Assembly: GCA_032718475.1 (NCBI GenBank)
Contig: JAUCBJ010008826.1
Coordinates: 1 to 64,000, forward strand
Length of the DNA stretch: 64,000 nt
Direction of reading: 5' to 3'
From: Nemertoderma westbladi
Lineage: Eukaryota; Animalia; Xenacoelomorpha
Shown here: one piece after another, positions 1-26,852 of the stretch
How the letters are laid out: every line of letters starts with the position of its first letter
How positions within the stretch are numbered: the first letter of the stretch is position 1
Translations under genes and position numbers: made by a program
The notes under the pieces: generated by a model
Database searches by the model: none
Told to the model about the DNA's origin: nothing
The model's input: the letters and a program-made list of their open reading frames with translations, nothing else

Positions 1-163
1 TTACGGAGGACGATGGTCGTTATATCGAACCGCCGATGTCCCAGGAACAACTTACGCGTGAATTGGACTATAGAAAATTCACCGCTCGCTATACGAATCG
101 TAATGGTACGTATATGGACTTCTTAACTACCGGCCATCCTACCGATTTACATGATATGGAAAT

Positions 164-2425
164 GTGGAGACGTATACCACTCGATACATGAAGTATAGTG
201 ATCTCCCTGACGCTAATCAATGCGCCACCTTGTGGCATCCAGTAGGGATGACCCTCGAGAACGCCACCAAAGAGGGGAATGAAACTCTTAATATCATTGA
301 GATGTATGGCGTTGTTACTTACGATAACGAAGGTAGCGTTCCAATCGGAGAATTAGGAACTACGCGCATGATACACATACGCGGATTAGCTGGTTCCACT
401 CATGTGTTTACGCGAGCGTGTTCCGACGTGATAGATTATTCCTTTGAAACTCTCACCGAAACGCAAAAGAATCTCCGACATGGACAATTCGAACTCGCGC
501 AGCGTTACGTCATTGACACCGAACGCAAACCGGCCATGGGTATCGATGGATCGATGTTACCCCAGCCCGTTCTCGAGATGTTATTCAACGAAAGAATCAT
601 TAAACTCGGCTCAGCTGTTTACGGAGATCTCCAAAACGACTTTCGGAATATGGAAAATATCCCCTATCCTTTCGTGGATACTCAGCTGATAGCTCCTTGG
701 GCCGAAGGCCGAGGTTTCTTTCGCACCATGTATGCTAATGCGTCTAGCAACATTACAAAGGTGCAACGAACTTCCATCGGACATCTTGCTTTTCAGGAAT
801 ACGGATGGAATTTCAAGGTCGGAAATCCCATCAACTATCAACAAGTATACGGAGACCATTATTCTCGATTATACTTTGACGGACCGTTGACCGCACCTGG
901 CGCCGTGTATAGCTTCATGAGTGTTCCACTCCGCCCCTCCTTAGCTATCTACACGATCTTCGAAAACACCGCACTTTCCGGTTGGCTAGCCGATGTGTGC
1001 AGTCGTACTATACGCGCCCATCCATTAATCCTTGGGACCAAACTCGCTAAGCTAGATGAACATAATAAATTCATCCGCTTTGAATGTTTCCGACGATTTT
1101 TAACCCCGTTTCGCAACGTGGATAGCCAATTCAAAGACCGCGCTTTGACCAAGCTCAGCTTAAGAGACTCGGCTGCGGAGAAGTTAGATAGCGCTGGATT
1201 TGCTATTTTCAAAGACATTTGTATAATAAACCTGCACTCCTCTGTTATCCAAAGACCTCGAATCCCCACAGGTTATTCTGTCGTGGAAATTCAGACGGTA
1301 GGTCCACTTGAGGAGACGGCCATGCCTACCTCAACTATACAAGGGGAAGACGAACCCATATGTTTAGAATCTGAAGAGATTCAGCCCCCCACGTCTCGGA
1401 GTAGCGATAGCGACTACATATTGGAATGGTATCAAGGTCCACAGTGTCTTACTGCGTATGATTATCGCCATGCCAGTTATGTTTCTCGACAACGTTGTCG
1501 GCTGTGCGCATCGAGAGACCATATTACGTCTATGGACACCAACGATCTCTGTTCCTATTTCCACGAGCAACCGTCGATGGAAATCTATTGTGCATATTGT
1601 CGGCTTAATAATTTGCACATTTTTGCTGTCTGCCCCCAATTTATGACTCAATGCCATCATTGTCAATTAAAAGGACACGCCAGCTTTGATTGTCCCTTTA
1701 ATCATGATTTAGAGAGCGTAGATGAAATGATTGTACTACGTTATATCAGAGCTTGGGAAGCGAACGCTGATTTACATTGTGATTCACGCCATCGCTATTA
1801 CCCTGGACGCGCTTACGAAGGAGTTTATGCGTTCCATCCTTATTTGTTTGCCTCCGTCGAGCAGAAATCACGCCTATCAAGTTATGAACTACTGAAGCGC
1901 GTTGGAGAATGTATTTCAACCAAATATGTACGCAAATTTCTCAGGAGCATTAATCCGAGTGACATCTATTCTTACAACTTAATAAACTTTATCCGTCAAG
2001 ACCCTGCCTATGGAGACTTATTTGTCAACTCACACCCCGAGTTACAGGAAGTATATCGACGGCCTTACGAGTACCGAGCCTGCGAACGCGAGTTGGAAAG
2101 AACCATTAAACCAAGGAAGTTTCTAACTGCCTATGGTCCACCCACGGCCCTCGTTCAGACCACTCGTACAGGACCCGTAAGAGCGGCTGTCTTGAAACGA
2201 GCTCTCAAAGCCGTTAGACCCCTCTCCCCGGACGTTGATGTCAATCAACCCGGTACTTCGACCGGCGGATATACCGATCGTAATCCCATACCTTCTGATG
2301 CAATCATATTGCACCCTTCACCCAGGAGTTATAGCCCTCCTCGTAAAGTGGCTCGCCCCAAAGAGAAAAGGACTCTTGCTAGCTTTAAAAAACTGCGTAA
2401 ACGCCGTCCACGCAAGAAAGACTAA
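164..2425 (+). CDS. C-terminal half of the retrotransposon extra ORF: DEDDy-like 3'-5' exonuclease-type domain, CCHC zinc knuckles, basic NLS-like tail
   Basis: Motifs VVTYDNEG (ExoI-like), LPQPVLEMLFNERIIKLGSAVYGDL (ExoII-like), FVDTQLIA and PLTAPGAVYSFMS (ExoIII-like). Knuckles CAYC-x5-H-x4-C and CHHC-x4-H-x4-C; tail KKLRKRRPRKKD. It is cut off from its N-terminus (1-160, different frame) by a ~1.7-kb deletion. Confidence 0.7.
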   Translation: METYTTRYMKYSDLPDANQCATLWHPVGMTLENATKEGNETLNIIEMYGVVTYDNEGSVPIGELGTTRMIHIRGLAGSTHVFTRACSDVIDYSFETLTETQKNLRHGQFELAQRYVIDTERKPAMGIDGSMLPQPVLEMLFNERIIKLGSAVYGDLQNDFRNMENIPYPFVDTQLIAPWAEGRGFFRTMYANASSNITKVQRTSIGHLAFQEYGWNFKVGNPINYQQVYGDHYSRLYFDGPLTAPGAVYSFMSVPLRPSLAIYTIFENTALSGWLADVCSRTIRAHPLILGTKLAKLDEHNKFIRFECFRRFLTPFRNVDSQFKDRALTKLSLRDSAAEKLDSAGFAIFKDICIINLHSSVIQRPRIPTGYSVVEIQTVGPLEETAMPTSTIQGEDEPICLESEEIQPPTSRSSDSDYILEWYQGPQCLTAYDYRHASYVSRQRCRLCASRDHITSMDTNDLCSYFHEQPSMEIYCAYCRLNNLHIFAVCPQFMTQCHHCQLKGHASFDCPFNHDLESVDEMIVLRYIRAWEANADLHCDSRHRYYPGRAYEGVYAFHPYLFASVEQKSRLSSYELLKRVGECISTKYVRKFLRSINPSDIYSYNLINFIRQDPAYGDLFVNSHPELQEVYRRPYEYRACERELERTIKPRKFLTAYGPPTALVQTTRTGPVRAAVLKRALKAVRPLSPDVDVNQPGTSTGGYTDRNPIPSDAIILHPSPRSYSPPRKVARPKEKRTLASFKKLRKRRPRKKD

Positions 2426-2503
2426 CTGTTTAGAGTATTTTTATATTTTAGAAACTGTGATTTTGTATATTTTATAGACTTAAATCCCATTTTCTGGGAG
2501 CGG

Positions 2504-3723
2504 TGTAAAAGCTTTTGTGGGATAACTGATTCGTTTGCCTTGCTGGCCAGTTCCCCCCCGGTCGCTAGAATACTCTAAAAGGGATCTATAGCTAAAATAG
2601 TGCAAGCTACCAGCTTATTGGCTGATGGGCTGTACGAAGGTATCTGGGTTCTGTTCGATCGGCCAACCAGCTTAGGGAGGTTGCCTCAGCCCTGCTGTCC
2701 GTATCGGCCAATAGAATTTGAGTGGGCGTTGATTTTGACCTATCCCAGAGCTACTGAACTGAATTTCCTATCTGTATGCTCATCCTCTGTGTTGGACGGG
2801 AGCTTCGGGGAATAAGGGTAGTTGGTATCCTCGTATAGTCAGGTAGTCATATGATTCTTTATATGATTCTGTTGTTGTGTTCCCATTTTTCGCCAGACCA
2901 CCGGCTTTTGGGAAGAACTCTAGTAAAACTGCTTAAATTATCGAAAGTATAACTGTTAACTAACTCAATCAACCAACTGGTCTAATTAACGCACTATTAA
3001 TCATATAATTCTCCCGAACTTTACTTATTAATTATATTGTTTGTACTGTTATTTACCGTCAGTTATTAATTGTATCTATTTGTTGATGAAATATTGACCT
3101 TTGGAGAATACGGATAAATCACCCAAAATTCCCAATTTTCTTGATACACTACAGGTTAGAGAGACAGGCTATATATAACAATTGCGATTTATATCAATGT
3201 GGTGTGTATTGAATCTAATGTTATTTAGCAGACCCTACATGAGTCAATTGCCGCTCTCTTTATGTGTGATCAAATTTACTGACGGTCGGCAGAATAGTGT
3301 GCATGATTGTGATTGGTAACAAAGCATTTCCTAAAGAATGCGCCTTATACTTTAATTATAAGCAGTATCGTTGCGTTTAGTATAAGTCCTAGCTCTGTTT
3401 AAATAGATAGAGCGCCACGTCCTAAAGGAACTGTTAATATTTCCCGAAAGCCAATAATATCTGTCAGAAATTAATTATTAACGATCAATCGAATAATACA
3501 GTAGGTTTACACTGCAACCTTACACTGCAATAATAAAATTTAAGCAGCCGAATTCAGCCTCCCGGGTGTATCCATCGGGTGAATGATCGCGCATGGGCTG
3601 GCTTCGGTTAATGTTTTGTTTATTAGCATAAAATATTGTCGTATGCTAAAGGTGTGTTAATTAACTAAAAGACATATAAATTTTGGCAGGTTAAACTGCT
3701 AAAGGTCTTCAAAAGCGCGAACA
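2504..3723 (+). repeat. 3' LTR of copy 1 (divergent U3 variant)
   Basis: TGT...ACA termini. The 3' ~700 bp is homologous to the other LTRs, while ~2520-2900 is not alignable by eye. Confidence 0.88.
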
Positions 3724-4056
3724 GATGAAGGCGGTTAATGAAATCTAGATTTCATTCCAAAGACGAAAAATAAAGCTGACGGAGGTGGCTAAATATTGCG
3801 AAATAGACGATATTTAACGGCTTGTTGTATCGAAATAGCTCATAAATTAAAAAATCCGGCCAGGCCACCAGTAAGAATAGGTGTCGATCTGTCATCATAC
3901 CAAAAATTTCGTAGCATTTTAATAAAATTTGAAAAAAATTTGGGGGGGGGGGGGGGCTCCGACCCCCTAAAAATGGTTGTTGTATTAAGGGTTATGGTGT
4001 ATATTATACATACACAAACACATCTCTTACATTATAAGGTTTAATTTAACAAAAAG

Positions 4057-7000
4057 GTCAGGTCAGGTCAGGTATTCTAGGTCATTGATCAAGAAAACTT
4101 GCCACCTCCATGCAGCATAAAGGAGGTGCCACCTGTAGCTGCACAGACCCTCTTATTAGGGCAAATCTGGTCCTGTAACTAGGACCCCCTTCGTTCTGGG
4201 ATAAGGACGCCGTTGGTCCTGGATTAAGGACCCATATACTTGGCTGCAGGGGTATATGGCCTGGCCAGGCATATGGTGATCTACCAATGGCTGGTCAGGA
4301 GTAGAGTGTTCTCATGTCCACTCTGAGTACACTTCACTGCGACCTGCACCTGACAGCAGGGGTACAGTGCATGACCCAGCAGATGAGCTGCACAGCCAAT
4401 GGTGGGTCATGTGCGTCAGAGTAGATATGGGTGATTGGCCTCATATCTGACTCCACTGCGACACCCACCCTGTGGAACGGCAAACCAGGGTGTGGTATTT
4501 GCCCCGAGAGCTGACTCGGCAAAAAAGCACCCCCCAACCCCCCACTATGGATTACATTAGTAATGCGGAGGTCCGGCCACTAGAGGCCAGTGGAATTACC
4601 GGACACAATCGGCCTCGCAGGCGTCAGTTATCTCCTGACTGGCTGCCTGTCTCACCCCCTACTGGAGAGAGAGAAGCCAACAATTCTTTGAGTCCCTTTC
4701 ATGATGACCTTTCTGGCCCAAACACTGGATCACCAGGGAGGCCAGATTGTGAGGGGGAGAGGGATTCTGGAGTTGGAGGCTACTCTCATGTTCCACCCCG
4801 ACCAACAAGGCCATTGGTGAATCTGAGGCAAGTCACTAGACTAGCCTCAGTAAACACCCTAACACTCGGTTCCCCAATGCGACAAGGTGAGCTGACTGCC
4901 TTGGCAGATAAGCTTTCTCTTAGCGCAGTGGGTGTTCAAGAGCACCGAATGCAGACTTGACAGACTGATGAGGTTCTGATTAAGGACATGGGGGGCGGTT
5001 GGCGACTCGCCCTCGCGTCAGCAGATGATAGTGGCAATGGTGGTATTGGTCTATTGATGAATCCAACTGCGCATGCAGCATTGGACAAAATAGACCAAAT
5101 CTCTAACCGCATCATCCGTTGCCACTTCTCATGTTCTGGAAGACTGGCTAAGAAGTTTCCTAAGGTGGTTCTGATTGTGTGCTACTCTCCAACTAGGGTT
5201 GCCCCTGTAGAGGAGGTGGAAAATTCCTACCACAATCTACAAGCAGCTACTGATGGAGTGGATCAGCATGCATTCTTAACATTCCTGGGAGACTTTAATG
5301 CAAGTCTGCATCAATCACCTACATCGCCCTGGGTATATAGCAATAGTGTCAACCGAATTTCCGTCCATCTTCAGGATTTTATCTCTGGAAATGGATTGTT
5401 TTCGGCTGGAACCCAGTTCAAGAAGCGAACTGGAAAGCTATGGACTCATAGTGGACCCAGTGGTCACAAGTCCCAGATAGACCATATTATTCTGTTTCGT
5501 AGGAAGTACAGGAGCTCTATACAAGACTGTAATGCATTTACACTTCGACCCTTCTCCAGTGATCACCGACTTATTGTGGCCAAGGTAAGACTTAGTCTGC
5601 GTGCTAGCAGAACAACGAAATCTGCCTTGCCGCGGCATGACTAGTCCTCTCTGTTGCAACAGCCAAGTGTGAGATCCAGCTTCACACTACAGCTGAGCAA
5701 CAGGTATGAGGTTCTTGCCTCTGAGGCGGCAGATCACTGTGAGGGCTATACTGCCTTCACAGAAGCAGTTAAGTTAGCAGCTGCAGAAACAGTTCCTGTA
5801 TACCCTCGAAACAGGAAAAGGGCCCCCTGGACTGAAAACAAAATCCAGAAGTGCCGAAATGACCTATATAAGGCGCAGAAAGAGTCCCGACTCAAACAGA
5901 CTACAGCGGCCAAGAATGCAGTTTAGGCTGCATCTAGGTCCCTGAACAGGCAGTACTCTGTTAATCTACAGGAGCTAATAAACCAACAGGTTGATGCCAT
6001 CAATGATGCTGACGACAGCAGGCAATCATCCCAGATCGATCAACTTGCTTACTGGGCGGAAAAGCCAACCAACCACCAAGGTTAAGGCTGAATCACCAGC
6101 CGATCGCCTCAATGGTTGGAAGGCCCACTTTGAAAAGCTCCTCAATAATGACAGGGTATTGCCTGAAAACTTTATAGTAGTAAAAGTGTCTGAGTCTGTA
6201 CTCCTAGATATTCCCATTGGCGATATCTCCTTTGCAGAAGTGAAGGCTGCTGCAAAGAGCATTAAGACCAATCGTGCCAGTGGAGTAGATGGTGTTCCCC
6301 CTGAGGTCTTTAAAATACCTGAGTGTTTAAAGCTCATCTATCCCATCATAGTAGACATGTACCGTACAACAAGAGTCCCACAAGAAATGAAAACAAATAA
6401 GTTGGTGCCAGTTCCCAAGAAGGGCAACCTAACACTCTATGGTTCTTTTCGGGGAATCTCATTGATCTCGATTGCTGCAAAGCTATACAATAGAATTCTA
6501 TTAAATCGCATCAGGGATCCCATTGAGAGACTGCTCCGTGGAAATCAGAATGGGTTCCGTAAAGGTCGTGGGACCATGGAGCCCATTTTGGCACTTAGAA
6601 GGATAATTGAAGAGTTATCAAAAAAGAAAGACAGGCATCTGGCTGTTATCTTTGTTGACTTCTTCAAAGCCTTTGATTTAGTCTCCCGCTCACGTATGTT
6701 CAGCATACTTTCATTATATGGGATTCCTGATGAAATTATTGCAGCAATCAGATCAGTATACGATGGTTCGACAACATTTGTGTCTACTGTTGATGGTGAC
6801 ACAAACCATTTGAAGTGTTATGGGGCGTCCTCCAGGGAGACACACTTGGACCATTCTTGTTCATAATTGTGGTTGACTATGTCCTTAGATCATCATAATG
6901 ATGATGGGGTGATGATAACTCCACCTACTGGCTCCAGAAGTCGAGGAAATCCTGCCAAGTACCTAACTGATCTAGACTTTGCTGATGACTTAGGAGTACT

Positions 7001-8147: not shown

Positions 8148-8935
8148 TATTGGGCAAGTGGCCTAATGGACAAATGGCCTATTGGGCAAGTGACCTAATG
8201 GACAAGTGGCCTATTGGGCAAGTGACCTAATGGACAAGTGGCCTATTGGGCAAGTGACCTAATGGACAAGTGGCCTATTGGGTAAGTTACCTAATGGACA
8301 AGTGGCCTATTGGGCAAGTGACCTATTGGGCAAGTGACCTATTAGGCAAGTGACCTAATGGACAAGTGGCCTATTGGGCAAGTGACCTAATGGACAAGTG
8401 GCCTATTGGGCAAGTGGCCTAATGGACAAGTGGCCTATTGGGCAAGTGACCTAATGGACAAGTGGCCTATTGGGCAAGTGACCTAATGGACAAGTGGCCT
8501 ATTGGGCAAGTGACCAAATGGACAAGTGGCCTATTGGGTAAGTTACCTAATGGACAAGTGGCCTATTGGGAAAGTGACCTAATGGACAAGTGGCCTATTG
8601 GGCAAGTGGCCTAATGGACAAGTGGCCTATTGGGCAAGTGACCTAATGGACAAGTGGCCTATTGGGCAAGTGGCCTAATGGACAAGTGGCCTATTGGGCA
8701 AGTGACCTAATGGACAAGTGGCCTATTGGGCAAGTGACCTAATGGACAAGTGGCCTATTGGGCAAGTGACCTAATGGACAAGTGGCCTATTGGGTAAGTT
8801 ACCTAATGGACAAGTGGCCTATTGGGAAAGTGACCTAATGGACAAGTGGCCTATTGGGAAAGTGACCTAATGGACAAGTGGCCTATTGGGCAAGTGACCT
8901 AATGGACAAGTGGCCTATTGGGCAAGTGGCATTGG
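8148..8935. repeat. Minisatellite of 16-bp monomers in a 32-bp dimer (TGGCCTATTGGGCAAG / TGACCTAATGGACAAG)
   Basis: Tandem array seen directly in the sequence. Confidence 0.95.
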
Positions 8936-9671: not shown

Positions 9672-10875
9672 AATGAAATGAAATGAAATGAAATGAAATG
9701 AAATGAAATGAAATGAAATGAAATGAAATGAAATGAAATGAAATGAAATGAAATGAAATGAAATGAAATGAAATGAAATGAAATGAAATGAAATGAAATG
9801 AAATGAAATGAAATGAAATGAAATGAAATGAAATGAAATGAAATGAAATGAAATGAAATGAAATGAAATGAAATGAAATGAAATGAAATGAAATGAAATG
9901 AAATGAAATGAAATGAAATGAAATGAAATGAAATGAAATGAAATGAAATGAAATGAAATGAAATGAAATGAAATGAAATGAAATGAAATGAAATGAAATG
10001 AAATGAAATGAAATGAAATGAAATGAAATGAAATGAAATGAAATGAAATGAAATGAAATGAAATGAAATGAAATGAAATGAAATGAAATGAAATGAAATG
10101 AAATGAAATGAAATGAAATGAAATGAAATGAAATGAAATGAAATGAAATGAAATGAAATGAAATGAAATGAAATGAAATGAAATGAAATGAAATGAAATG
10201 AAATGAAATGAAATGAAATGAAATGAAATGAAATGAAATGAAATGAAATGAAATGAAATGAAATGAAATGAAATGAAATGAAATGAAATGAAATGAAATG
10301 AAATGAAATGAAGTGAAGTGAAGTGAAATGAAATGAAATGAAATGAAATGAAATGAAATGAAATGAAATGAAATGAAATGAAATGAAATGAAATGAAATG
10401 AAATGAAATGAAATGAAATGAAATGAAATGAAATGAAATGAAATGAAATGAAATGAAATGAAATGAAATGAAATGAAATGAAATGAAATGAAATGAAATG
10501 AAATGAAATGAAATGAAATGAAATGAAATGAAATGAAATGAAATGAAATGAAATGAAATGAAATGAAATGAAATGAAATGAAATGAAATGAAATGAAATG
10601 AAATGAAATGAAATGAAATGAAATGAAATGAAATGAAATGAAATGAAATGAAATGAAATGAAATGAAATGAAATGAAATGAAATGAAATGAAATGAAATG
10701 AAATGAAATGAAATGAAATGAAATGAAATGAAATGAAATGAAATGAAATGAAATGAAATGAAATGAAATGAAATTAAATGAAATGAAATGAAATGAAATG
10801 AAATGAAATGAAATGAAATGAAATGAAATGAAATGAAATGAAATGAAATGAAATGAGATGAAATGAAATGAAATG
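9672..10875. repeat. (GAAAT)n pentanucleotide satellite, ~1.2 kb
   Basis: Near-perfect tandem array with rare GAAGT, TAAAT and GAGAT variants. Confidence 0.98.
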
Positions 10876-11387
10876 AGTTCTGACAAACATAATGGTAGAC
10901 CTTACCTAGCACCAGAAGCACTAGTGTCTTGGACTCGTTTTATCATATATATAATATTTATCTATAAATAATTTGATTCTATAAAAAACTGGACAAAATT
11001 GAAGCGTCCATAGAATTTGATCAATTGAATGAAATTCCACAGGGTAATTGAGGTTTTCAGACAAAAAAATTGGAAATTATAGTAGTGGTCAGCTTGTATA
11101 AGTAATACACCAACGTTATCAATCAATTTCCGAATGATATCTAAAATTCCACAATTGTAAAATTAAAAATTTTGAACATATGCTTGTTTAGAATATTCAT
11201 AGAATGTAATGGATAACCTTAACCATTGGAAAGCCAAAAAAGTTTTCCTTTACAAACAAGTCAATTTATATTGTCGTAATTTATTTTATTATGTATTTTA
11301 TTAATTGTTTATGGTATTGAGTAGGTCCATCTGTTGTTTAACTTATAGTTGTTGCACCTTAAATTAAAGAGCAATAATATTGACGAA

Positions 11388-13356
11388 CTACTACTACTAA
11401 GTCGAGCGAACTCGGACAGTGGAAATGAGATCCTTCCAGGCTTCCCGATTCTCCATAGTTGTCGCAATTTCGTTTCTCCCAAGTTCAGTATCCCTTTCAA
11501 GTTGATCTATATATGTTATGGCCGGTCGTCCACGACTACGCTTTCCATGAGTTGGTTGCCAGAGAAGTAGATCTGGTATGACCTCGTCTTTACTTCGCCA
11601 GCAGTGCCCACAGAATCTTAATCTGCGTTCCCGGAGGGTGGTTGATACAGGTGGTATTGTACCATAAAGCTCGGCGTTTGTCATGTGTTGTCTCCAGCTG
11701 ATGTTTAAGGCTGCCCTTAGTAGTCGTGTGTAGCAACCATCAATTCGTTGTTCAAGTGATTTAGTCAGTGTCCAGGTCTCACCCCCGTATAAAAATACAC
11801 TTTCCACTGATGCAATCCAACCTCCTTAGCAGCCCTCTCCACTTTATTTAGTAGAAGCTGTGCATCTGCTAGCGTATTAGAGAGCAGGGCGATGTCATCC
11901 GCAAAGTCGGTGTCTGTGACTGTAGTTGCCGGATTTCTACTACTTCTGCGTTCTTGAAGTGTGAATCCCAGATCTTCACTCTTTGTGGCCGTCCTCATTG
12001 CGTAATCCAGCACAATTACAAATAGTAATGGTGCTAATGTGTCACCTTGCAGTACGCCAGCCAGGATTGAGAAAAACTCAGTTTCACCATCTGGTGAGAG
12101 TACCTGCGCTTCTGTGTCACAATATAACAATCCAATGCCAGCAACAATTACTTCTGGTATTCCATAAGCTCTTAGGATTTCAAGCATTTTACCTCTATGG
12201 ATGGAGTCGAATGCCTTCTTGAAGTCCACAAAAGTCATGACTGCGGGGAGATTCTTTGACTTAATTCCTTCAATCATTCTCCGTAGTGCAAGTATCTGAG
12301 CTATTGTTGAACTACTGTGTCGAAATCCGTTTTGGCTCTTACGCAGTAGTTTCTCTATGTGAGGCCTAATCCTATATAGAATCATTTTATTGTATATTTT
12401 GGCAGCTACCACAAGCAGGCAGATCCCACGATAGTTTGTTGGTATGCTGAGGTCTCCTTTCTTGGGGAGAGGCTTTAGTTGACGTTTAGTCCAAATTGGT
12501 GGTGGCTTTTCCCCTTTTAACATCCGGTTGCAAACATTCAATAATGGTCTGTTTAGCACTCCGGTTTTCCATACCTCAGCTGGGATTTCATCTAATCCAC
12601 TCGCTTTATTATTGGACATGCTTTTAATGCTTCTTTGGAGTTCGGCAGGTGTGAAGTCCCCTGTTTCTATGTCAAATGTCAAATCTATGTTTCTGTTTCT
12701 ATGTTCCCATGTTTCTGTTCCCCTGTGTCTTGTCATATATTTTCCTTGTAGGGCTGACCTCGATGTTTGGTGGCTGCCCAAACAAGTTGCTGAAGTGTTT
12801 TTCCACTTCCCAACACGTTCTTCAGGATTATCGGCTTTGAGGCGCCTCTTTGCACAACTTTTCCGACCAGATACCTCATTTACAGTTTGTCAGGTAGGTC
12901 TTGATTGTTGCTGTATGTGAGCAGTTGTAATTGCTTCAGTTTTATCCTGTATGTACTTTTCCTGGCTGATGTTGTAGGCCAATTTAAGATCGTCCTTAGC
13001 TTTCTCAACCTTGTTAATGTTTTCGGTTGTTCGGTTTTAACTTTGTAGGCTATCTTAAGATCTTCTCTCTTACAAGTAACCTCAGAGTTTTGCCATGGCA
13101 CATACTGTTTTCGTTTGGGTTTCTGGGGGATATGCCTCTTAGCTGATTCCTTGTGGGCTGTTATTATATTCTGGTATATTGAATTGGTGGATTGGTCTTC
13201 ATCCATTGACTGAAGTGCTTCAAAGCGGTTTTGAACTTCTACTGTATAAGCATCCTTTACAGCATTGTCAGTTCTGAGTTTCTCCCAGTCATATTTGATT
13301 TGCTTGCTTGTCCTGGGTTTGCTGGCTCTCAAACTGAGTCTGATCTCTGCAGTCAC
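11388..13356 (-). mobile_element. 5'-truncated RTE-like LINE (RT), decayed
   Basis: RT motifs NYRGICL, QNGFR, FVDFKKAFDSIHR, GVLQGDTLAP and DFADD; C-terminal ESVFLYGGETW...LLWQP...RGRP; (TAG)n tail at 11388-11399; internal deletion near 11790. Confidence 0.92.
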
Positions 13357-13359
13357 AAT

Positions 13360-13482
13360 TCTGTATATACAGTACACTATGTACAGTATGTACGTACAGT
13401 ACAATATGTACAGTACAATATGTACAGTACAATATACAGTACAGTATGTAGACCTTATTACTACTATTTTAGTACTGTATAT
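13360..13482. repeat. Degenerate TACAG/TACAA-type microsatellite
   Basis: Repeated GTACAGTA / TACAATAT units. Confidence 0.6.
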
Positions 13483-13483
13483 A

Positions 13484-13725
13484 AATGGGAGAATCTTTTT
13501 AGACTCGTTAAGCCAAGGAATGCCTGTTCACCACATGGGTGATCTTCCACAGGAAACCCTTCCACTCCGTTTCCCAAGTTGCCTTGGTTCCCATTTATCG
13601 ACTACTGAAGATGAAAGCCGGGGTTGGGCTAGGCTGCAGCATATAAAGCACTGTGCCTTAACAGTGCTGTCCCAACTAGGGATCGAACCAGGGCTCCCTA
13701 ATTGAAAGCCCAGGAATGTCACCAA
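13484..13725 (-). mobile_element. tRNA-derived SINE
   Basis: B-box-like GGTTCGATCCC near the 5' end. A second copy lies on the + strand at ~43363-43566. Confidence 0.75.
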
Positions 13726-15560: not shown

Positions 15561-17201
15561 AAATTAAAGTCACGAAATTATTTTTTATCAATAGAGGTAA
15601 GTTTAACAGGGTAACATTCATGATAACAGGTAGTATCTCATTGTCACCTTTCGAGATTTCCAACTGGAGCTCGCCAGTTAGATCTCGCTTGGGGTGTCCG
15701 GATAATTGCAACCCGGGTCATTGGACCCATGATTTTAGATATACTGTATTTGTTGTATCGCAATTGTCCAGGTCGCAATTGTCCTACTGTAACTTCCACA
15801 CCTGGACGTCAACGCCGACTTTGCTACGAATAATACGTAGTGTACAGTATTGATAGTAGTAGAGTCTTGGGCGGCTCGGCGACAGTTAGACCCCACTCAT
15901 GACACATCGCTTAGGAATGTGACACCTATGGGTGTCATTGGCGCCAGAATGTCTGGGTGACACCTCCTAATTAGGCTAATAAAACCCAAATTTACAGGTG
16001 TCATCAATTAATTAATACACTTAATCCCTAATAGGTGTCTTACGACTCCTAATTAGGGTTTAATTGATTATACTAATTAATCAGACCGAATAGCGCCCTA
16101 ACACCCAATGGCTCATGAGTGTTGTCTAACTGTCACCTAGAGGCCCAAGAGGGTGTCATAAGTGACACCGCGGCTTTTTTATTTATTAATACTTATTTAT
16201 TTGTATTTAATTTTAATTTATTTAATTGTATTTATTTTTACTTTATTTATTTAATTTTAAATTAATTATTTATTTGTACTTTATTTTAAATTAATTAATT
16301 GTATTACTTTTACTTTATATATTGATTTCTATTTTAATATTAATTAGTTTTTATATTACTTACCGCTACTAAATGAGATCACTATGACATAATATCTATA
16401 TTTAGCTCTGTGGTATACAGCTCCTTACTGGCAACTATTTTGGAGTTAATGTTAGCAAAGGGCCTAAACTTAAGACAAGCTATCGCCTAGGTTACCAGTT
16501 ATGCATGAATGAGAAATTTATCAGGGCCCCTCTTAAAATTCTTTGTGCTGCGTCAGCAGCACAAGGAAGCTTAAGGAAGCTGCATCCCTATCGATAATCT
16601 AATTATGGTATCGCTAATCATTTTCAGTATACTGTATAATTAAATAGGGCCCTCAATTAATACATAAGTTTATATATACAGTTTATCTTCAATTTAATTT
16701 GTTTTTATTTACAACCCTAATTGTTCTACTGTATTATAATTTATGTTTTATAATAACAAGCTATATCCGGTTAATCTGTATTAATTTTCTTTGTACTGAG
16801 TTTATCGAGTGCGCTGTTTCCAATGGTCCTATTCTCAAAACGATCTAACCTACTGTATAATTAATTACTTAAGACTGCGATGTATGCGTAATTAACTAAT
16901 CTCGTTTACCAGTTTTCCTTAAAAACTTTGAAGCCATATTGCTTAAGAGTTCTAAGGGGCGAGTCATGAGGCAAGATGTTTGAGACTTATTTAGATATAT
17001 TATTACTTAATTTTGACCCCCCAGTCGGTATCTATTACAATATGGGCTATAACTTTTGTAGAGTCACAGAGTAGTCTGAAGTTCCCCAGTCTGCCGCTAG
17101 AGGGCGAAATGTCTCAAACTAAAAACCATATAGTAGCCATGAATTGGTTACTAGGCAATAATACTGCATTTTGCAAAGTTAGGCCTATTGCTGACCGAAT
17201 G

Positions 17202-17285
17202 AAAACTGCCCTGGTTCATGCGGGGATCGAACCCATGACATACGGGAGATGCGAATTCAACGTAACCACTACACCAAGGTGGAAC
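17202..17285 (-). ncRNA. tRNA-like Pol III cassette in the left TIR
   Basis: On the minus strand: A box TGGTGTAGTGG, B box GGTTCGATCC, then TTTT. No convincing cloverleaf. Confidence 0.45.
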
Positions 17286-17348
17286 CGTAACCTTCGAATT
17301 TGTTCGTTGCCGTTCGAATTTGTAAGACTCTCATTTAAGACCTGATAC

Positions 17349-17597
17349 AGACTATGCCTCACTGTGGCATAGACTATGCCTCACTGAGGTACAGAATATG
17401 TCTCACTGAGGCTCTGAGGCATAGTCTATGCCTCACTGGGGCACTGAGCCACAGACTATGCCTCACTGAGCCGCAGACTATGCCTCACTGAGGCATAGAC
17501 TATGCCTCACTGAGGTACTGAGGCATAGACTATACCTCACTGAGGCATCGACGACTATGCCTCACTATGGCATAGACTATGACTCACTGAGGCATAG
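17349..17597. repeat. Palindromic 22-bp minisatellite (GAC TATGCCTCA C TGAGGCATA) in the left TIR; resumes at 18784-18819
   Basis: Tandem array seen directly; the solo LTR is inserted in it. Confidence 0.9.
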
Positions 17598-18783
17598 TGT
17601 TCGCGCTTTCAGACCTTTAGCAGTTTAACCTGCCAAATTTGGATGTCTTCTAGATTATAAATCGACTTTAGCCTATGACGAGTATTTGTTACACTACATT
17701 AGCCGAAGCCAGTCTATGCGCGACCATTCACCCGCTGGATACACCCGGGAGACTGGATTCGGAAGCTTTGACCTTATTGCGGTGTAGGCCTACTGTATTA
17801 TTCGACTGATCGTTAATATATAATTTCTGACAAATATTATTCACTTTCGGGAAATATTAACAGTTCCTTTAGGACGTGGCGCTCTAAATATGTAAACAGA
17901 GTTATGACTTATACTAGACACAACGGGATAGCTATGGATTCACGTATAAAGCGCATTCTTTAGGAGATGCTTTGTTATCAGTCACAATCATGCACACTAC
18001 CGCACAATGCTGCACACCGATCTGCCGACCTTCACTAATTTTAGTCACATATAAAGAGAACAACAACCGACTCATGTAGTGCCTATGAAATAGCATTAGA
18101 TTCACTCCAAAACCACTTTAATGTAAGTCGCAATTATTGTATGTAACCGGTCTCTCACCTTCAGTATATCAAGAAGATTGGCGGTTTTATGATTATTCAC
18201 CGATATTATCCAAATATAATAATATTCCATCAACTGATATAATTAATAACCGACAGTAAATAGCAGTAAAAATGCGGTGTTTGTAGTTGACAATATGATT
18301 TGACACACTGACTTGTGATTAGTTTGTGTTGCGATAACAGTTATACGTTTCTATGACCAAAGCCTACTAATGTTTGGCTAAAGCCTGAAAACACAGAAAT
18401 TCCAAAGCCGGTCTTATGGGTGTGGACAAAATACACATACTGACTCAATTGCATGAGTTTCTGTATACAATCTCCAACACAGAGTGAAAACCGCTCTGAT
18501 TGGTCGACCGAACAAAGAACGAACAAAGAACAAAGAAAATGTTACATGTGTACATATCAGCTGTTAGATGTCGTCATGGTAACTACACTGTATCAAGAGG
18601 ATTTTGGCTTATTGCGACATAAGATCGCTAGTTATGTCCGCTAAAGTACACATACAGAAGAAATGGCTTTTTATGTCCACTAAAACACCGGTACAGTAAG
18701 GAAACGGCTTTTTATGTCCGTTAAAACACCTACAGAGCACTTTGCGGGAAAAATAACTAGCTAGATCCGCAAAAGCCTTTACA
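17598..18783 (-). mobile_element. Solo LTR of the BEL/Pao family
   Basis: Reverse complement of the LTR with TGT...ACA ends, flanked by the 5-bp TSD CATAG (17593-17597 / 18784-18788). Confidence 0.93.
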
Positions 18784-20355: not shown

Positions 20356-21522
20356 TGTAAAAGCTTTTGCGGAATTAGCCGGTTATTTTCCCCGTAAAGT
20401 ACTCTGTAGTTGGTTTAACAGGCATAAAAGGCCGTATCCTTACTGTACTGGTGTTTTAGTGGACATAAAAAGCCATTTCTTCTGTATGTGTACTTTAGCG
20501 GACATAATTAGCAATTCTATGACGCAAGGCGCTAGATCCTCTTGAAACAGTGTAGTTACTATGACGACAGCTAACAGCTGAGCTGTACACGTGTAGCTTT
20601 TTCCTTGTTCTCTGGTGTTTCTTTGTTCGGTCAACCAATCAGAGCGATTCTCCTGCTTTTTGTACAGAAACCTCCGGGAAATCGCGCAATGCATTATGGG
20701 TCAATGTTTACATTTTGTCCTGAGCCCAGAAGACCGGCTTTTGGAATCTCTGTGTTTTCAGTCTTTAGCCCAACATTAGTAGGCTTAATTATAGAACGTA
20801 TATCTGTTATCTCACTCACCTAATCATATTGTCAACTACAAACACCGCATTTTTACTGCTATTTACTGTCGGTTATTCATTATATCAGTTGATGGAATAT
20901 TATTATATTTGGAATACCGATAAATAATTACAAAACCCTCAATCTTCTTGATATACTGAATGTAAGAGAGACCGGTTACATATAACGATTGCGACTTACA
21001 TTAAAGTGGGTTTGAAGTGAATCTAATGCTATTTCATAGGCACTACATGTATTGGTTGTTGTTCTCTTTATATGTGACTAAAATTAGTGAAGGTCGGCAG
21101 ATCGGTGTGCAGCATTGTGCAGTATTGTGTATGATTGTGACTGATAACAAAGCATCTCCTAAAGAATGCGCCATATACGTGAATCTATAGCCATCCCGTT
21201 GTGTCTAGTTTAAGTCATAACTCTGTTTACATATTTAGAGCGCCACGTCCTAAAGGAACTGTTAATATTTCCCGAAAGTGAATAATATTTGTCAGAGATT
21301 ATATATTACGATCAATTGAATAATACAGTAGGCCTACACCGCAATACGGTTAGGCTTCCGAATCCAGTCTCCCGGGTATATCCAGCGGGTGAATGGTCGT
21401 GCATAGACTGGCTTCGGCTAATGTAGTGTATCAAATACTCGTCATAGGCTAAAGACGATTCATTATCTAGAAGACATCCCAATTTGGCAGGTTAAACTGC
21501 TAAAGGTCTAAAAGCGCGAACA
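20356..21522 (+). repeat. 5' LTR of copy 2
   Basis: TGTAAAAGC...GCGCGAACA, directly repeated at 33338-34503. Confidence 0.96.
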
Positions 21523-21536
21523 ATAACAGATATACG
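21523..21536 (+). promoter_or_regulatory. Non-tRNA primer-binding site complementary to an LTR-internal motif (putative self-priming PBS)
   Basis: ATAACAGATATACG immediately after the LTR is the exact reverse complement of CGTATATCTGTTAT at 20797-20810. It has no TGG start. Confidence 0.7.
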
Positions 21537-21805
21537 CTTCTTTATTGCAACGTAGGCAATAAAGCTGAAGTACCGGCCAACCGGTACCCAATAGGCCTGA
21601 CTACCTAACCACCCGGACCGGTACTTACAGCAGTACAGGTACAGCAGTATTATTTCGATTGTGATATTGTATACCGGTAGGCTGTTTAAGAGATTAGGGA
21701 CTGTACACCCCTTGTTTCTTTTGGAGCTTACTTATTTCTGTCAGGTTTTATTTATTTGTAGGTTAATATTGAGCAGAAGACGTGTAAGCCTGCTCAGATT
21801 ATACA

Positions 21806-22385
21806 GATAATTTGTAGGCTGGACTGTTGTCTGACTGTTGTTAAGTCTGAAGGGACTGTAGTGTGTGTAGAGTGTATGTCCGATAAAGTGCCAGTTGGGA
21901 ACGTAGGGGCTTCCAGTGCTGTGAGGTAAACCCCCTCGAAAGAATAAGTCGTACTACTCGGTTAGAACGCATACTAACTAACCATTTTGGAGTCTGCATA
22001 TACTGTAGTTTATTTAGGCTTGATAGTAGTCTGCCAGCGTTTGGTCTGTACTTTGTTTGTGTAGTCTGTACGGGTAGCGTAATATTTCTTATTTAGATAA
22101 TTTGTAGGCTGGATTGTTGTCTGGCTGTTGTTAGGTCTGAAGAAATTTCGGTGTGTGTAGAGTGTATGTCCGATAAAGTGCCAGTTGGGAACGTAGGGGC
22201 TTCCAGTGCTGTGAGGTAAACCCCCTCGAAAGAATAAGTCGTACTACTCGGTTAGAACGCATACTAACTAACCATTTCGGAGTCTGCATATACCGTAGTT
22301 TGTTTAGGCTTGATAGTAGTCTGTCAGTATTTGGTCTGCATTTTGTTTGAGTAGTCTGTACGCGTAGCGTAATATTTATTATTCA
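21806..22385 (+). repeat. ~289-bp direct tandem duplication in the 5' leader of copy 2
   Basis: The block starting AGATAATTTGTAGGCTGG occurs at ~21806 and ~22095. Confidence 0.9.
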
Positions 22386-24084
22386 GAGTTTATGCGATTA
22401 TTCGCAACATTCATATCCCCAAGTTTATTCCTACAGTAATTGTGCTTGTTATATATACCGTTATAGTTAAACTAACCCCGGTACTACATCAGGGCTGCTT
22501 GGCGTAGGTAAAGACTGGTGATTTTGTGCCCCGGTCACTCCAGCAGATACCGTGGTTCTTTTAGCTGTACAAGTATTTCTAACTACTGATTATTTGTTGT
22601 ATAAGTACTTGTACCTAATTTAGGGTTTAGTGTACAGTGCTTTCCGAGGGTAATTAGTGTGTAGGCAGTATAATTGTGTTGTAAAGTGGATAATAGGCAC
22701 GTTGATTCTGGTAGACCGCGGTAATTAACTTCTAGGTAGGAACACTCCGTGATACATAACGTAGTACTTATAGCGATACGGCTATAAGTCGTCAGACGGT
22801 GGTATTTTCCTATCTGGACAACGCAATATATTTACTACTGCTTGTTATTTTCAAATACCGTAGTACCCTGTCCGTTGTAATAACCAGATATTCTAACCCT
22901 TTGTTAGGCTGGTTTGCAGACTTCTTGTAAAATTACCCTAAAAATTCATACGTGTAATTTTTGTGTTTATTTAGAGATTGTAATCTCACCCCGAATTGTA
23001 TGTAATTTGTAGTATTAAGTAACTTAGGTAAATTAGAATTATTTGTTTTAGTGTCCAACAAGTAGCACTTCACTGATAGCGCACAGCTTCTGTGTAGTGA
23101 CTCCTTCCCAGAAATAATAACATTTATTTCAAATATTGACAAAACCCATTATACGGGTATATATATATTATAAATCAACTCAAACCGATTTATAAATAGT
23201 AGGCCTGCCATACAACAATTAGGTCTCAATATCAGTTGGACTACTGCTCAAATAACGGTAATAAAGTAAGTTAAAGTAACCAAGTAACCCCTAAAATTCA
23301 GAAATTCAATAATTCTAAAATAATTGATATACCGGTATTTATAATAGGCTTATTATATTTATTTCTATAAATTTAGGCTGAAATTATACCGGTATTCTGT
23401 AATTAATTCTAGTCTGTAATTATACTTATATATATACATTATAAGTATAAGCTGTATACCGGTATTCACGATAGGCCTATTATATATATTTATATATTTG
23501 TGCTAAAATTATATACTGGTATTCTGTGACAAACCTAGTCTGTAATAATACTTATATATATACTATAAGCATACCGGTATTCTAATATATTATATATATA
23601 TATCACGCTACACTGAGTAGCAGTATCGGTAATTAATTACTAGGCTAACAGTTGATACTGAATTACTAGACTTGCTTTAACTGTAATATAGCAGTAGGCA
23701 TTCAACTGTACAAACAAACATGTCTGACACAAAGCAAAACCTGTCAGACAGCCTCCTAGATACAACCATCTGTGACCAAGAGCGGACGTCCGAGAATGGC
23801 TTCAGTTTTGACCTTCTTGATAAATATTTCTTTCAAAATTGTGATATCAATCTAAACAACTTGAGAATTCTAAGCATTTTGAGCTAAATAAATGAACTCT
23901 AAATATTCACTAGCACCAAATTGCCCACCCACCCTGTACAGCTGTAACAACGTTCTGGAACAAATAAATCATAATCTAAACATGTAGCCCCGGTGGTCTT
24001 CTAATCGTTCCTAAAAATAATTGGTAGATTCGAATTCGCATTGTACAATTAAACATTTCGGAAATAAACGTTTCGGATTATTTA

Positions 24085-24690
24085 CTTAAATAGTTAAATT
24101 TATAAACTTTTTAATTATAAATAAATTAGTTATAAATAAAATCAAAATTTTATTCCACCGATGGGCTACGTGGATGATTATCTACAACTTTGAGTTTCAT
24201 CATTTTCCCGTAGGACCTATAGTTTTCTTAAATAGCGAAATTTATTACCTTTTTAATTATAAATATATTAGTTATAAATAAAGTCAACATTTTATTCCCC
24301 CGATGGGCTACGCGGATGATTATCTACAACTTTGAATTTCATCATTTTCCCGTAGGACCTATAGTTTTCTTAAATAGCGAAATTTATTACCTTTTTAATT
24401 ATAAATATATTAGTTATAAATAAAGTCAACATTTTATTCCCCCGATGGGCTATGCGGATGATTATCTACAACTTTGAATTTCATCATTTTCCCGTAGGAC
24501 CTATAGTTTTCTTAAATAGCGAAATTTATTACCTTTTTAATTATAAATATATTAGTTATAAATAAAGTCAACATTTTATTCCCCCGATGGGCTACGCGGA
24601 TGATTATCTACAACTTTGAATTTCATCACTTTCCCGTAGGACCTATAGTTTTCTTAAATAGCGAAATTTATTACCTTTTTAATTATAATA
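24085..24690. repeat. ~138-bp tandem repeat (~4.5 copies) in the leader of copy 2
   Basis: Repeated CCGATGGGCTACGCGGATGATTATCTACAACTTTG...CCCGTAGGACCTATAG. Confidence 0.92.
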
Positions 24691-25238
24691 TTAGTAATAA
24701 ATTGATCAATTTACTTGAAATTTGGTACACGTATTTCTGGTACCCCCCCTTCATATTGTGTGCAAATTAAAAAAAAAATCGTATCTGCAGTTCCTGAGAT
24801 CGACTGATTTTGGACTAGAGTGTACATATATACTGCTTTGCCACTACCATTATAATTCGCATCATTTACCCACTACTGATTAGCCCCATTCAATAGATTA
24901 ACTGTAAACATTGTTCATATAGTGGATATGTGTATTGCTGGGCAGACTGGCTATAGTATAACATCCGTCATTAAACAACCCCAGTAGTCAGACACTGTGG
25001 TTATCATTAAATCAAATTGTCTATAAATAGTACACATTAGATGGCGGCCATATTACTACTGAGATAACGGCATACTAGCAGCTCTACCTACCTACTGTGG
25101 TTGCCAAGCCAACTCTGAATTAATTCTACCAGCGAACTGCCTTGGTGCTCTTCCCAATCAGATATCGGCAAGATTTATTTCTAATAGTTTTAATTAATTT
25201 TTAATAACTTTAAAACATTCTCACTCGGCCCCTAATTT

Positions 25239-26852
25239 ATGAATTTGGGACGGCGCTTTATCTTGGTAGCTACTGCGCCGGTTTTCTTGCAGGGAAAGGG
25301 CCCTCTCCACCCAGACAGGAGTGTGGAACGTGTGAGACCGAAGTTCAACTCACCTCCTACTGTAAGAAAGATCATCCCTCCAGTAGTAATATCAGACCCT
25401 AGGCTAGTCCAACATCGTAGGTCTATCATAGGCACTCGAGCTCAGGTCAAGCGAGACCAAGAAGCAGCGGAACAGCAGCAACACTCGAGCCGAGAACTTA
25501 TTTCGCAGCGGCCCGACAGCTCCAGTAGTGAGGATACTGTAGAGCTGACACCCGAGCACGGAGCAAAGATGACAGATGCGGTTTATTCGGATCCCCTTCT
25601 CATCCTTCCTGCAGCCGTACTCACTAGGGTATTGATTGCGGTGGAGGAACACCAGATTGATTGGGCGAGAAGTAAGCGATCGACTAAGGATAGTTATGCG
25701 GGATACACAAGGGAAGAACTGAAGTCTATTGTCGAGTCGCAATGGAACTTCCCCGGACCCAGACTCCCGCTTGACTTATCGGAAGCTGCCTGGGAAGACA
25801 TACACAGGATGGGAGTAACCAAGGAAACCATCGATCCAGCTGTGTGGAAGAGGTCCGCAGCAGGATACGTACAGGGATTCTTCAGCTCCATGGAGCGATT
25901 AGAGGAACAATTGTTTAGACAACCACAAGGACCTCAAGAGCAGGGAGAGCTGCTTTATCAAGTTCGAGAAAGAATTCTAAGAATCAGACTAATCCTATCG
26001 GCCTTTGAGGAGGCTTCGAAAAGAAAACAAGGCACGTCGTTGCAAGTTGCCGTAAAGACTTGGTTTCAGCGAGTGAGTCTCAAAGTTCAAGGAACTGCCC
26101 AGTGGAAATCTCAGCTGGCTGAGCGCTCAACTCATGGAGAATCAACAGACGCTACCTTTTCCCAAGTGGAAAGCGAAGCGACAGCAGAGAAACCGCATAA
26201 GAGGGATGCTATTGACATCTATCTGTCAGACTATCAACGCTTTGTAGGTGATGAAGAGTTGAGGAGAAGGCTGGAGGGACTTAGCCCTAATAGTGAAGGA
26301 GCCAAGCTTGTGTTGGACGCAATCGATGCGGATATGAGAGCTGCGAACCAAGCTAAATTTGATGAACGCCTCCACATCACTAGAGTCCAAGAAGAACAAG
26401 TAAAGAAAAAACGTATAGAAGTCAGAAAGACAGCGGCAGTGGCAGCAGCAGTGGCAGCGGCAGAAGCGGAAAGAAAAGCGACAGCGGCAGCGGCAGAGGT
26501 AGAAGCGGAAAGAAAGGCGGTAGAAATGGAAAGAAAAGCGGCGGCGGCGGCAGCGGCAGCGGCAGAGGCAGAAGCGGAAAGAAAGGCGGTAGAAGTGGAA
26601 AGAAAAGCGGCAGTGGCAGCGGCCGAAGCGGAAAGAAAGGCGGCAGTGGCAGCGGCAGAGGCAGTGGCAGAAGCAGAAAGGAGAGCGTCTGAAGAAACCA
26701 CCCAACTAGAATTGGAAAACATTCAGGAGAATCAAGACTGCATAAATAAACAGTTAACAGCTAGTCAAATGCAGATGATGGGTGGATCAACTCCCAAAAG
26801 ACAGGGATATACATCATCTGAGGAAGGCGATACCACCGATCTTGAAGGCTGA
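25239..26852 (+). CDS. Long N-terminal Gag extension with Ala/Glu/Lys (EAERKAA)n coiled coil
   Basis: 537-aa ORF directly upstream of gag. Copy 3 reads openly through the region homologous to ~26900-27050, suggesting an originally continuous ORF. Confidence 0.65.
   Translation: MNLGRRFILVATAPVFLQGKGPLHPDRSVERVRPKFNSPPTVRKIIPPVVISDPRLVQHRRSIIGTRAQVKRDQEAAEQQQHSSRELISQRPDSSSSEDTVELTPEHGAKMTDAVYSDPLLILPAAVLTRVLIAVEEHQIDWARSKRSTKDSYAGYTREELKSIVESQWNFPGPRLPLDLSEAAWEDIHRMGVTKETIDPAVWKRSAAGYVQGFFSSMERLEEQLFRQPQGPQEQGELLYQVRERILRIRLILSAFEEASKRKQGTSLQVAVKTWFQRVSLKVQGTAQWKSQLAERSTHGESTDATFSQVESEATAEKPHKRDAIDIYLSDYQRFVGDEELRRRLEGLSPNSEGAKLVLDAIDADMRAANQAKFDERLHITRVQEEQVKKKRIEVRKTAAVAAAVAAAEAERKATAAAAEVEAERKAVEMERKAAAAAAAAAEAEAERKAVEVERKAAVAAAEAERKAAVAAAEAVAEAERRASEETTQLELENIQENQDCINKQLTASQMQMMGGSTPKRQGYTSSEEGDTTDLEG

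Follow-up and report, generated by a model that had tools for sequence, protein, structure and literature searches.

Results

An additional gene in a BEL/Pao retrotransposon

The window analysed here (the whole stretch of 64 kb, positions 1 to 64,000 of contig JAUCBJ010008826.1 of Nemertoderma westbladi) contains, as seen by self-comparison, three copies of one long terminal repeat (LTR) retrotransposon and one solo LTR. This element carries an intronless extra open reading frame (ORF), ORF3, which is the subject of this work; it occupies the same site in all three copies, after pol and before the 3' LTR. By domain content and order, the carrier of ORF3 is a BEL/Pao LTR retrotransposon. Pfam searches with gag-pol identified DUF1759 (E = 1.7e-11), an aspartyl protease, Peptidase_A17 (E = 8e-22) and the integrase zinc finger Integrase_H2C2 (E = 4e-7), and YMDD is present in the reverse transcriptase (RT) region of copy 3. 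The DUF1759 gag and Peptidase_A17 are accompanied by the order gag-protease-RT-RNase H-integrase, by LTRs with TG...CA ends and by 5-bp target duplications. Copies 2 and 3 overlap, and adding up their coordinates puts the element at an estimated 20 kb or so, arranged as an LTR of about 1.17 kb, a 3.7-kb leader, gag-pol, a 1.64-kb spacer, ORF3, about 80 bp and the second LTR.

The complete ORF3 is found in copy 3 (51141-55394, minus strand), where it spans 1,417 codons from an ATG at 55394 to a stop at 51141. It is interrupted by in-frame stops at 52856, 52055 and 51485, one inside the exonuclease-like domain described below and two further downstream. In copy 1, the C-terminal 756 codons form an open frame (155-2425, plus strand) whose start has been severed by a deletion, and an N-terminal remnant (2-160, plus strand), matching 55290-55132 of copy 3, lies in another frame. 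Positions 153-2523 of copy 1 match 53413-51043 of copy 3; the roughly 1.72 kb missing in between were lost out of frame, so that the remnant and the 3' part are read in different frames. Copy 2 retains the first ~460 codons and the last codons with the tail (31903-33259, plus strand), its deletions having taken out most of the RT, the integrase and the stretch of ORF3 that encodes the exonuclease and the knuckles. Because of these stops and deletions, no ORF3 copy in the window is intact. The first-pass annotation, made from the sequence alone, had treated the ORF at 164-2425 as the gene, which corresponds only to the 3' part left by the deletion in copy 1. Its claim that the ORF at this position encodes a DEDDy/DnaQ-type domain was borne out, but the annotation overlooked three zinc knuckles and a 660-residue N-terminal part.

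The ORF3 protein consists of about 685 residues to which no family could be assigned, the exonuclease-like domain, an acidic linker, three Cys/His knuckles, about 140 conserved residues and a basic tail. The three zinc-knuckle-like motifs (1496-1693, plus strand in copy 1) read C-x2-C-x4-H-x9-C, C-x2-C-x5-H-x4-C and the canonical C-x2-C-x4-H-x4-C; this region matched zf-CCHC_3 with an E-value of 0.008, below the cut-off. The basic tail (2387-2422, plus strand) may serve as a nuclear localization signal or in RNA binding. The N-terminal part contains a Cys/His cluster near residues 228-252 and a likely coiled coil near residues 400-460. The cluster (54640-54715, minus strand; C-x2-C ... H ... 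C-x2-H) is a possible zinc site and had no family match. Pfam searches with pieces of the whole ORF found no family, and Rfam gave no match. Against the PDB sequences, the N-terminal 661 residues gave nothing except a coiled-coil match (E = 0.97) and residues 289-756 gave no match; the ~140 conserved residues past the knuckles matched nothing in family or PDB searches.

Known extra ORFs of BEL/Pao elements are env glycoproteins of nematode elements, and an envelope gene was also considered for ORF3. This was ruled out, as the 1,417 residues contain no membrane-spanning segment: the highest hydropathy over 19 residues is 1.33, and this segment is the putative ExoIII helix.

The exonuclease-like domain

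The domain occupies residues 26-288 of the copy 1 frame (230-1018, plus strand), with its counterpart at 53336-52548 (minus strand) in copy 3, and has insertions of about 30 and 25 residues compared with bacterial members. Several concordant, individually weak matches indicate that it very probably belongs to the DEDDy/RNase D fold. The segments on which the first-pass annotation had based its call, VVTYDNEG, LPQPVLEMLFNERIIKLGSAVYGDL, FVDTQLIA, TSIGHLAFQEYGWNFK and PLTAPGAVYSFMS, are all present in frame 155-2425 and in the order it gave. Its narrower assignment to a WRN/EXD/Mut-7-like type found no support over RNase D, the sequence matches being to RNase D and the structural scores being tied.

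A scan of 1.84 billion proteins yielded a single relative (E = 2.6e-6), designated P0001. It is an unannotated 648-residue singleton from a 9,449-bp metagenome contig of the ENA, known from the protein alone, whose gene may or may not belong to a retrotransposon. P0001 is 30% identical to the window domain over 171 columns and displays the same order of parts as ORF3, namely an exonuclease-like domain, a low-complexity linker, three knuckles and a basic tail. Its knuckles match retroviral nucleocapsid (E = 1e-4) and align to those of the window with a score of 67, reached by none of 300 shuffles. The segment past the knuckles gave no match above shuffles between the two proteins.

On its own, the window domain matched no Pfam family and no PDB chain. 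NCBIfam rnd was hit by the window domain at E = 0.004 and Pfam PF01612 by the P0001 domain at E = 0.04. With a profile of the window copies and P0001 (A1), the sole match among PDB sequences at E-values up to 10 was E. coli RNase D (E = 0.89). In PHROGs, an exonuclease was the second of two weak matches (E = 0.23). All 30 named Atlas clusters carried PF01612 (top score 0.92, 163 shared features); in the unfiltered search, two unnamed clusters came first and a viral cluster with 41% PF01612 third. When searched against 301 proteobacterial genomes (E up to 0.05 per genome), A1 matched in 67, at one place each, and 29 of the 30 loci retrieved sit in ORFs with the RNase D-type motif D-[TS]-E-[FY], the remaining one being unrelated.

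A1 was also compared by hhalign with a set of enterobacterial RNase D sequences picked without A1, the controls being 60 column shuffles and the reversed query. The score of 41.8 (probability 82%, E = 1e-5, over 48 columns) is to be compared with 13.6 ± 2.3 for the shuffles (maximum 22.0) and 14.7 for the reversed query. The match to a short NrnC-like/WRN-like bacterial set was weak (probability 7%). Other searches were negative: word-index protein searches returned nothing with the window domain or with A1, and only itself with P0001; no related loci were found among metagenome contigs with the domain or among viral contigs with P0001, and plasmids and phages gave chance-level matches only.

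The resemblance to the RNase D/NrnC/Rrp6/WRN/EXD2/Mut-7-Nibbler group amounts to 12-20% identity. In a tree built without eukaryotic sequences, the window domain groups with P0001, but both branches are very long and the grouping may be due to long-branch attraction; the length of the branch prevents the domain from being placed in a subfamily.

A structural model guided by a 56-row alignment reached a predicted local distance difference test (pLDDT) score of 62 and a predicted template modelling score of 0.65. It shows three N-terminal strands, a core with 84-91 per block, and a long last helix containing Y266 and E270 (67-80), the YSFMS loop scoring 31-42. The best structural match was diDNase (Z 12.6, root-mean-square deviation 3.5, 158 aligned residues), a circular result in that the alignment rows were DEDDy domains. 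Other matches were NrnC, RNase D, Nibbler (11.5), WRN (10.9), EXD1 (10.9), the trypanosome RNase D-like enzyme TbRND (10.2-10.8) and giant-virus 3'-5' exonucleases. The Z scores of the WRN/EXD2/Mut-7 and RNase D/NrnC/Rrp6 groups lie within about 2 units of each other. Since the guiding alignment was mostly RNase D-like, the model indicates compatibility with the fold and does not allow a subfamily to be named.

The predicted active site and the register of ExoIII

To locate catalytic residues, we used the 56-row alignment, of which 52 rows are bacterial DEDDy domains, in three MAFFT runs (--auto, L-INS-i and E-INS-i). ExoI, D57-x-E59 (323-331, plus strand), fell on the catalytic columns in all three and in one further alignment, and in the guided model it belongs to the first of the long strands. 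ExoII, D158 (626-628, plus strand), was likewise on its catalytic column in every run and is in the region of the A1/PDB and hhalign matches.

For ExoIII, the pattern P-L-x6-Y occurs twice, with an offset of 14 residues, which gives the candidates Y252/S256 (YSFMS) and Y266/E270. The first lies in PLTAPGAVYSFMS (884-922, plus strand) and had been taken by the first-pass annotation as an ExoIII whose last Asp is replaced, from which it argued for a pseudo-nuclease. The second, Y266-T-I-F-E270 (950-964, plus strand), just beyond the interval considered there, has Glu where the family has Asp. Y266/E270 was picked by --auto, by L-INS-i and by the further alignment. P0001 has W-x-x-PL-x3-Q-x2-Y-x3-E, which fell on the YAAxD column in every MAFFT run, and its YIYCENT aligns to YTIFENT of the window with a score of 83, equalled by none of 300 shuffles. 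The ungapped score against P0001 was +18 in the Y266 register and -12 in the Y252 register. With an ExoIII score derived from bacteria only (53 segments), Y266 ranked first of 150 positions and Y252 was outside the top five.

The alignment with P0001 thus decides for Y266/E270 as the better-supported register. The prolines after Y252 would also fit poorly into a long helix, and PLTAPGAVYSFMS, with its low pLDDT, more probably forms a loop inserted ahead of the helix that carries ExoIII. Common variants at 885-1000, taken over numerous copies from three samples (10 of 12 synonymous), hit none of Y266, E270, Y252 and S256; as both registers are spared, they indicate constraint and do not choose between them.

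In the better-supported register, the four predicted metal-ligand positions are all acidic, with the signature D-E-D-E and the Tyr. This removes the reason for calling the domain dead, the argument for a pseudo-nuclease having relied on equating YSFMS with YAAxD, an equation that P0001, the bacterial ExoIII score and two of the three MAFFT runs disfavour. With Glu in place of Asp, activity is likely rather than certain. As Glu270 departs from the strict Tyr-x3-Asp of ExoIII, we file the domain as a DEDDy-like D-E-D-E variant and not as a canonical member.

Purifying selection on ORF3

The first-pass annotation had noted that the block is nearly identical in copy 3 and had suggested purifying selection. 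Both points were confirmed, with 92% identity over residues 26-268 (53336-52548, minus strand) and the computation of nonsynonymous to synonymous substitution rates (dN/dS) that it had called for. Over residues 26-290, copies 1 and 3 gave dS 0.60, dN 0.039 and a dN/dS of 0.066 (bootstrap 0.036-0.102), far from 1, the differences at codon positions 1, 2 and 3 being 20, 4 and 74 (74 of 98 at the third). Over 753 codons, protein identity was 87%, with dS 0.79, dN 0.065 and dN/dS 0.08. By region, dN/dS was 0.035 after the domain, 0.053 in the knuckle region, 0.17 in the linker and 0.24 in the tail; for the N-terminal part, copies 2 and 3 gave 0.15 over 397 codons. As decay after insertion can only raise dN/dS, these values indicate that the whole ORF3 protein has been maintained in active lineages.

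Other features of the element and of the window

The 3' LTR of copy 1 (2504-3723, plus strand; TG...CA) has a short purine-rich tract upstream and, over the 3'-terminal 700 bp, shares about 75% identity with the other LTRs. Its first ~500 bp (2504-3040) cannot be aligned to the other four LTRs, suggesting a distinct subfamily or a recombinant LTR. The bases that follow it (3724-3800) have an 11-base word in common with the start of the copy 2 leader, probably by chance, as no wider homology was found.

Copy 2 (20356-34503, plus strand) is bounded by LTRs at 20356-21522 and 33338-34503, which are 98.9% identical, and by the target duplication CATCG. Given such similar LTRs and yet large deletions, it either lost these parts soon after insertion or was mobilised in trans. 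No TGG-type primer-binding site is present in the 78 bases past its 5' LTR (21523-21600); priming may be unusual or this copy altered. Its leader (21523-25235, preceding gag) contains tandem repeats of 290 bp (two copies) and 142 bp (4.4 copies), and the spacer ahead of ORF3 has a block of ~165 bp present twice. The gag region (25236-28995) is unusually long, with ~1,200 codons in two frames and an Ala/Glu/Arg-rich repeat at 26430-26720, and has no Pfam match ahead of DUF1759.

In copy 3, gag-pol (57033-64000, minus strand) comprises DUF1759, aspartyl protease, RT with YMDD, Peptidase_A17/RNase H and integrase; it has stops and frameshifts and is cut by the window end. Its protease region contains a 381-bp direct duplication (61125-61887, 99%). 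An AT-rich, non-coding spacer of ~1.64 kb (55395-57032, minus strand) separates the pol stop from the ORF3 ATG, and the 3' LTR, delimited by LTR comparison, lies at 49910-51062 (minus strand). The solo LTR of the same family (17598-18783, minus strand) is flanked by the 5-bp target duplication CTATG.

In contigs from four public runs, variant pieces occurred by the hundreds to thousands over all 30 bins of positions 1-3800 (134 to 23,644 per run, depths that do not equal copy numbers), a pattern expected for an abundant family. Metagenome contigs searched with a BEL/Pao pol piece contained no related loci.

The solo LTR was inserted at the edge of another repeated element, present as inverted copies (15849-17597 and 35299-37840) that are 94% identical and carry palindromic 22-bp subrepeat arrays. 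The window also harbours two broken non-LTR (long interspersed nuclear element) retrotransposons with endonuclease and RT domains (4451-6866, plus strand; 11765-13527, minus strand), an AATGA satellite of 241 copies (9672-10876) and a 32-bp minisatellite array (8148-8928).

Discussion

Proposed function of ORF3

We propose, with confidence evenly balanced for the combined reading, that ORF3 is the third gene of a ~20-kb BEL/Pao element and encodes an active 3'-5' exoribonuclease with RNA-feeding knuckles. That the predicted exonuclease is active is, taken alone, somewhat more probable than that. The position, size, selection, motifs and homology of ORF3 are observed, and the metal binding and chemistry are inferred. 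D57, E59, D158 and E270 would bind two metals and Y266 would orient the water, as in RNase D. By analogy to TbRND, the three knuckles would grip single-stranded RNA and guide its 3' end to the active site, raising RNA binding and setting a preference. The protein would likely be translated from a dedicated mRNA, either spliced or initiated internally, as suggested by the long spacer and the separate frame.

Several observations weigh against this proposal. Each individual match to the fold is weak and none exceeds a curated cut-off, and the significant local match covers only ~48 columns around ExoII. The pairwise score of the ExoI part against P0001 (21) does not exceed the shuffle mean (22.7), so that the case for ExoI comes from the multiple alignment and the motif. 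The check by profile and structure that the first-pass annotation had proposed was successful in its first half, with weak but concordant RNase D/PF01612 matches; in the second half, the unguided single-sequence model failed (pLDDT 31), and the structural matches of the guided model are not independent, 52 bacterial DEDDy rows having guided it. One of the three MAFFT runs (E-INS-i) placed YSFMS at ExoIII. The domain and the knuckles are ~160 residues apart, compared with 28 in TbRND. Replacement of Asp by Glu at this site is reported to cripple the Klenow exonuclease. The DEDD residues are described as strictly conserved (PMC11706625, in the part of that paper used here), the fourth ligand being Glu in ORF3; the sections of PMC7797062 that deal with mutants report trace activity left in TbRND after replacement of the fourth Asp by alanine.

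The lack of a match above a curated cut-off and the failed single-sequence fold would also be expected if the motifs resembled those of DEDDy enzymes by chance, within a conserved domain of another kind, or if ORF3 were a passenger host gene without a role for the element. This is very improbable: independent weak matches name one family, the shuffled and reversed controls are negative and the motifs are clearer in P0001, and the ORF is intronless, occupies the same site in three copies and has been selected between subfamilies at a dS of 0.6-0.8. A more serious alternative, though we still consider it doubtful, is that the fold has been kept for RNA binding, as in Egalitarian, EXD1 and Maelstrom, and that ORF3 is an adaptor that carries or shields the element RNA, or sequesters small-RNA factors, with no cutting. 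Neither register offers an Asp as fourth ligand (Ser256 in one, Glu270 in the other), two large insertions lie near the active site, the Z scores of Egalitarian and EXD1 against the guided model are only about 2 units or less below the best one, and purifying selection is equally consistent with a binder. Yet dead members usually lose acidic ligands, the loss of which would mark a pseudo-nuclease; this would be the case in the E-INS-i register, whereas the better-supported one has an acidic residue at each of the four positions, with the Tyr conserved among copy 1, copy 3 and P0001. That two proteins with just 30% identity both have Glu at the fourth position suggests that it has been retained as a ligand.

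Assuming an active enzyme, the substrate has to be considered. ORF3 might act in the particle on DNA or a replication intermediate, by trimming cDNA ends or primers or by proofreading, as an element of unusual length might need, with the knuckles as a second nucleocapsid. DEDDy members also act on DNA, the domains of family A polymerases and WRN tie structurally with RNases, the P0001 knuckles resemble those of retroviral nucleocapsid, the element is long, and the 78 bases past the 5' LTR of copy 2 offer no TGG-type primer site. We regard such a replication helper as rather improbable, since the sequence matches point to RNase D more than to polymerase domains, ORF3 is a gene of its own that lies 1.6 kb past pol, outside the polyprotein, and ordinary BEL/Pao elements are known to replicate without it.

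Within the proposal of an active exoribonuclease, the enzyme could trim the element's own RNA, primer or cDNA, but the target we favour is host silencing, through the trimming of small guide RNAs or U-rich decay tails. An accessory gene of this size, with a dN/dS below 0.1 in a group normally devoid of it, fits a conflict with the host, which is why small silencing RNAs or decay tails are favoured; this choice is tentative. In its fullest form, which is speculative and on balance unlikely, ORF3 and P0001 would represent a distinct active D-E-D-E-y family with triple knuckles, and ORF3 would be a BEL/Pao-encoded counter-silencing ribonuclease that destroys Piwi-interacting or small interfering RNAs or strips decay tails. 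It would be a counterpart of viral immune-evasion exonucleases and one reason for the abundance of the family in its host. If ORF3 does degrade small RNAs, it would be a rare silencing suppressor encoded by an animal transposon, and a working Glu at ExoIII would broaden the DEDD signature. Copy 1 provides a natural uninterrupted domain with its knuckles, suitable for expression and assay.

Comparison with known systems

With the RNase D/NrnC/Rrp6/WRN/EXD2/Mut-7-Nibbler group (PF01612), the ORF3 domain shares in register the D-x-E of ExoI, the Asp followed by DTQ of ExoII and the Tyr of ExoIII; it differs in scoring below all curated cut-offs, in its two large insertions and in the Glu for the last Asp. 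Egalitarian, EXD1 and Maelstrom have the same fold and bind RNA in small-RNA or transport pathways (discussion of PMC5408684, for what it covers), whereas ORF3 keeps acidic residues at all four positions.

In its architecture, a DEDDy exonuclease followed by tandem CCHC knuckles, ORF3 resembles TbRND (PDB 7C42 group; Z 10.2-10.8 to the guided model). As presented in the relevant sections of PMC7797062, TbRND consists of an RNase D domain and four CCHC knuckles, which have affinity for U-rich RNA and enhance cleavage. Its authors deem this combination very unusual; deletion of the knuckles lowers RNA binding and cleavage (section 13). TbRND is, however, a host mitochondrial enzyme with a canonical DEDD and with its four knuckles 28 residues from the domain, while ORF3 has three knuckles much further away, Glu at ExoIII and long flanks without a family. 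The likeness is one of analogous design.

The carrier is typical of BEL/Pao (Belpaoviridae) in its DUF1759 gag, aspartyl protease, RT, Peptidase_A17/RNase H, integrase, TG...CA LTRs and 5-bp duplications, and differs from the usual elements in its ~20 kb, its 1.17-kb LTRs, its 3.7-kb leader and an enzymatic ORF3 that is not env. Our literature search found no DEDD-type ORF3 in BEL/Pao and none of this size or architecture; Repbase, subscription papers and supplements lay outside this search and could contain one.

The closest precedent, to which the first-pass annotation had rightly pointed, is that of bdelloid rotifers, where DEDDy ORF3s are known in the LTR retrotransposons Juno and Vesta (PMC5408684) and in Athena/Terminon elements (PMC6431247). 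According to the passages of PMC5408684 that treat these ORFs, they have a DEED signature and no demonstrated function, roles in 3'-end processing and silencing were proposed, and the ORF3s are described as spliced units; the selection tests in those passages concern env and GDSL ORF3s only and gave values near neutrality. In the portions bearing on this subject, PMC6338049, PMC3985635 and PMC3870282 cite the rotifer case or general motifs only. Like the rotifer proteins as described in PMC5408684 and PMC6431247, the present one is encoded past pol, in the ORF3 position, lacks a membrane segment and has a DEDDy domain of the RNase D-like type. Unlike them, again by description, it is carried by a BEL/Pao element and not by a dUTPase-bearing lineage, has D-E-D-E in place of DEED, and is a 1,417-residue protein with three knuckles under strong purifying selection. 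Protein searches with the window domain, P0001 and A1 gave no rotifer match. DEDDy ORF3s as such having already been published for rotifers, what is new here is the BEL/Pao carrier, the 1,417-residue triple-knuckle architecture, the ExoIII Glu common to one remote homologue and the measured selection. For retroelement DEDDy ORF3s, the rotifer report gives, in the passages cited, no activity or selection test; the present case extends the arrangement to BEL/Pao, with a protein that has been kept under strong purifying selection.

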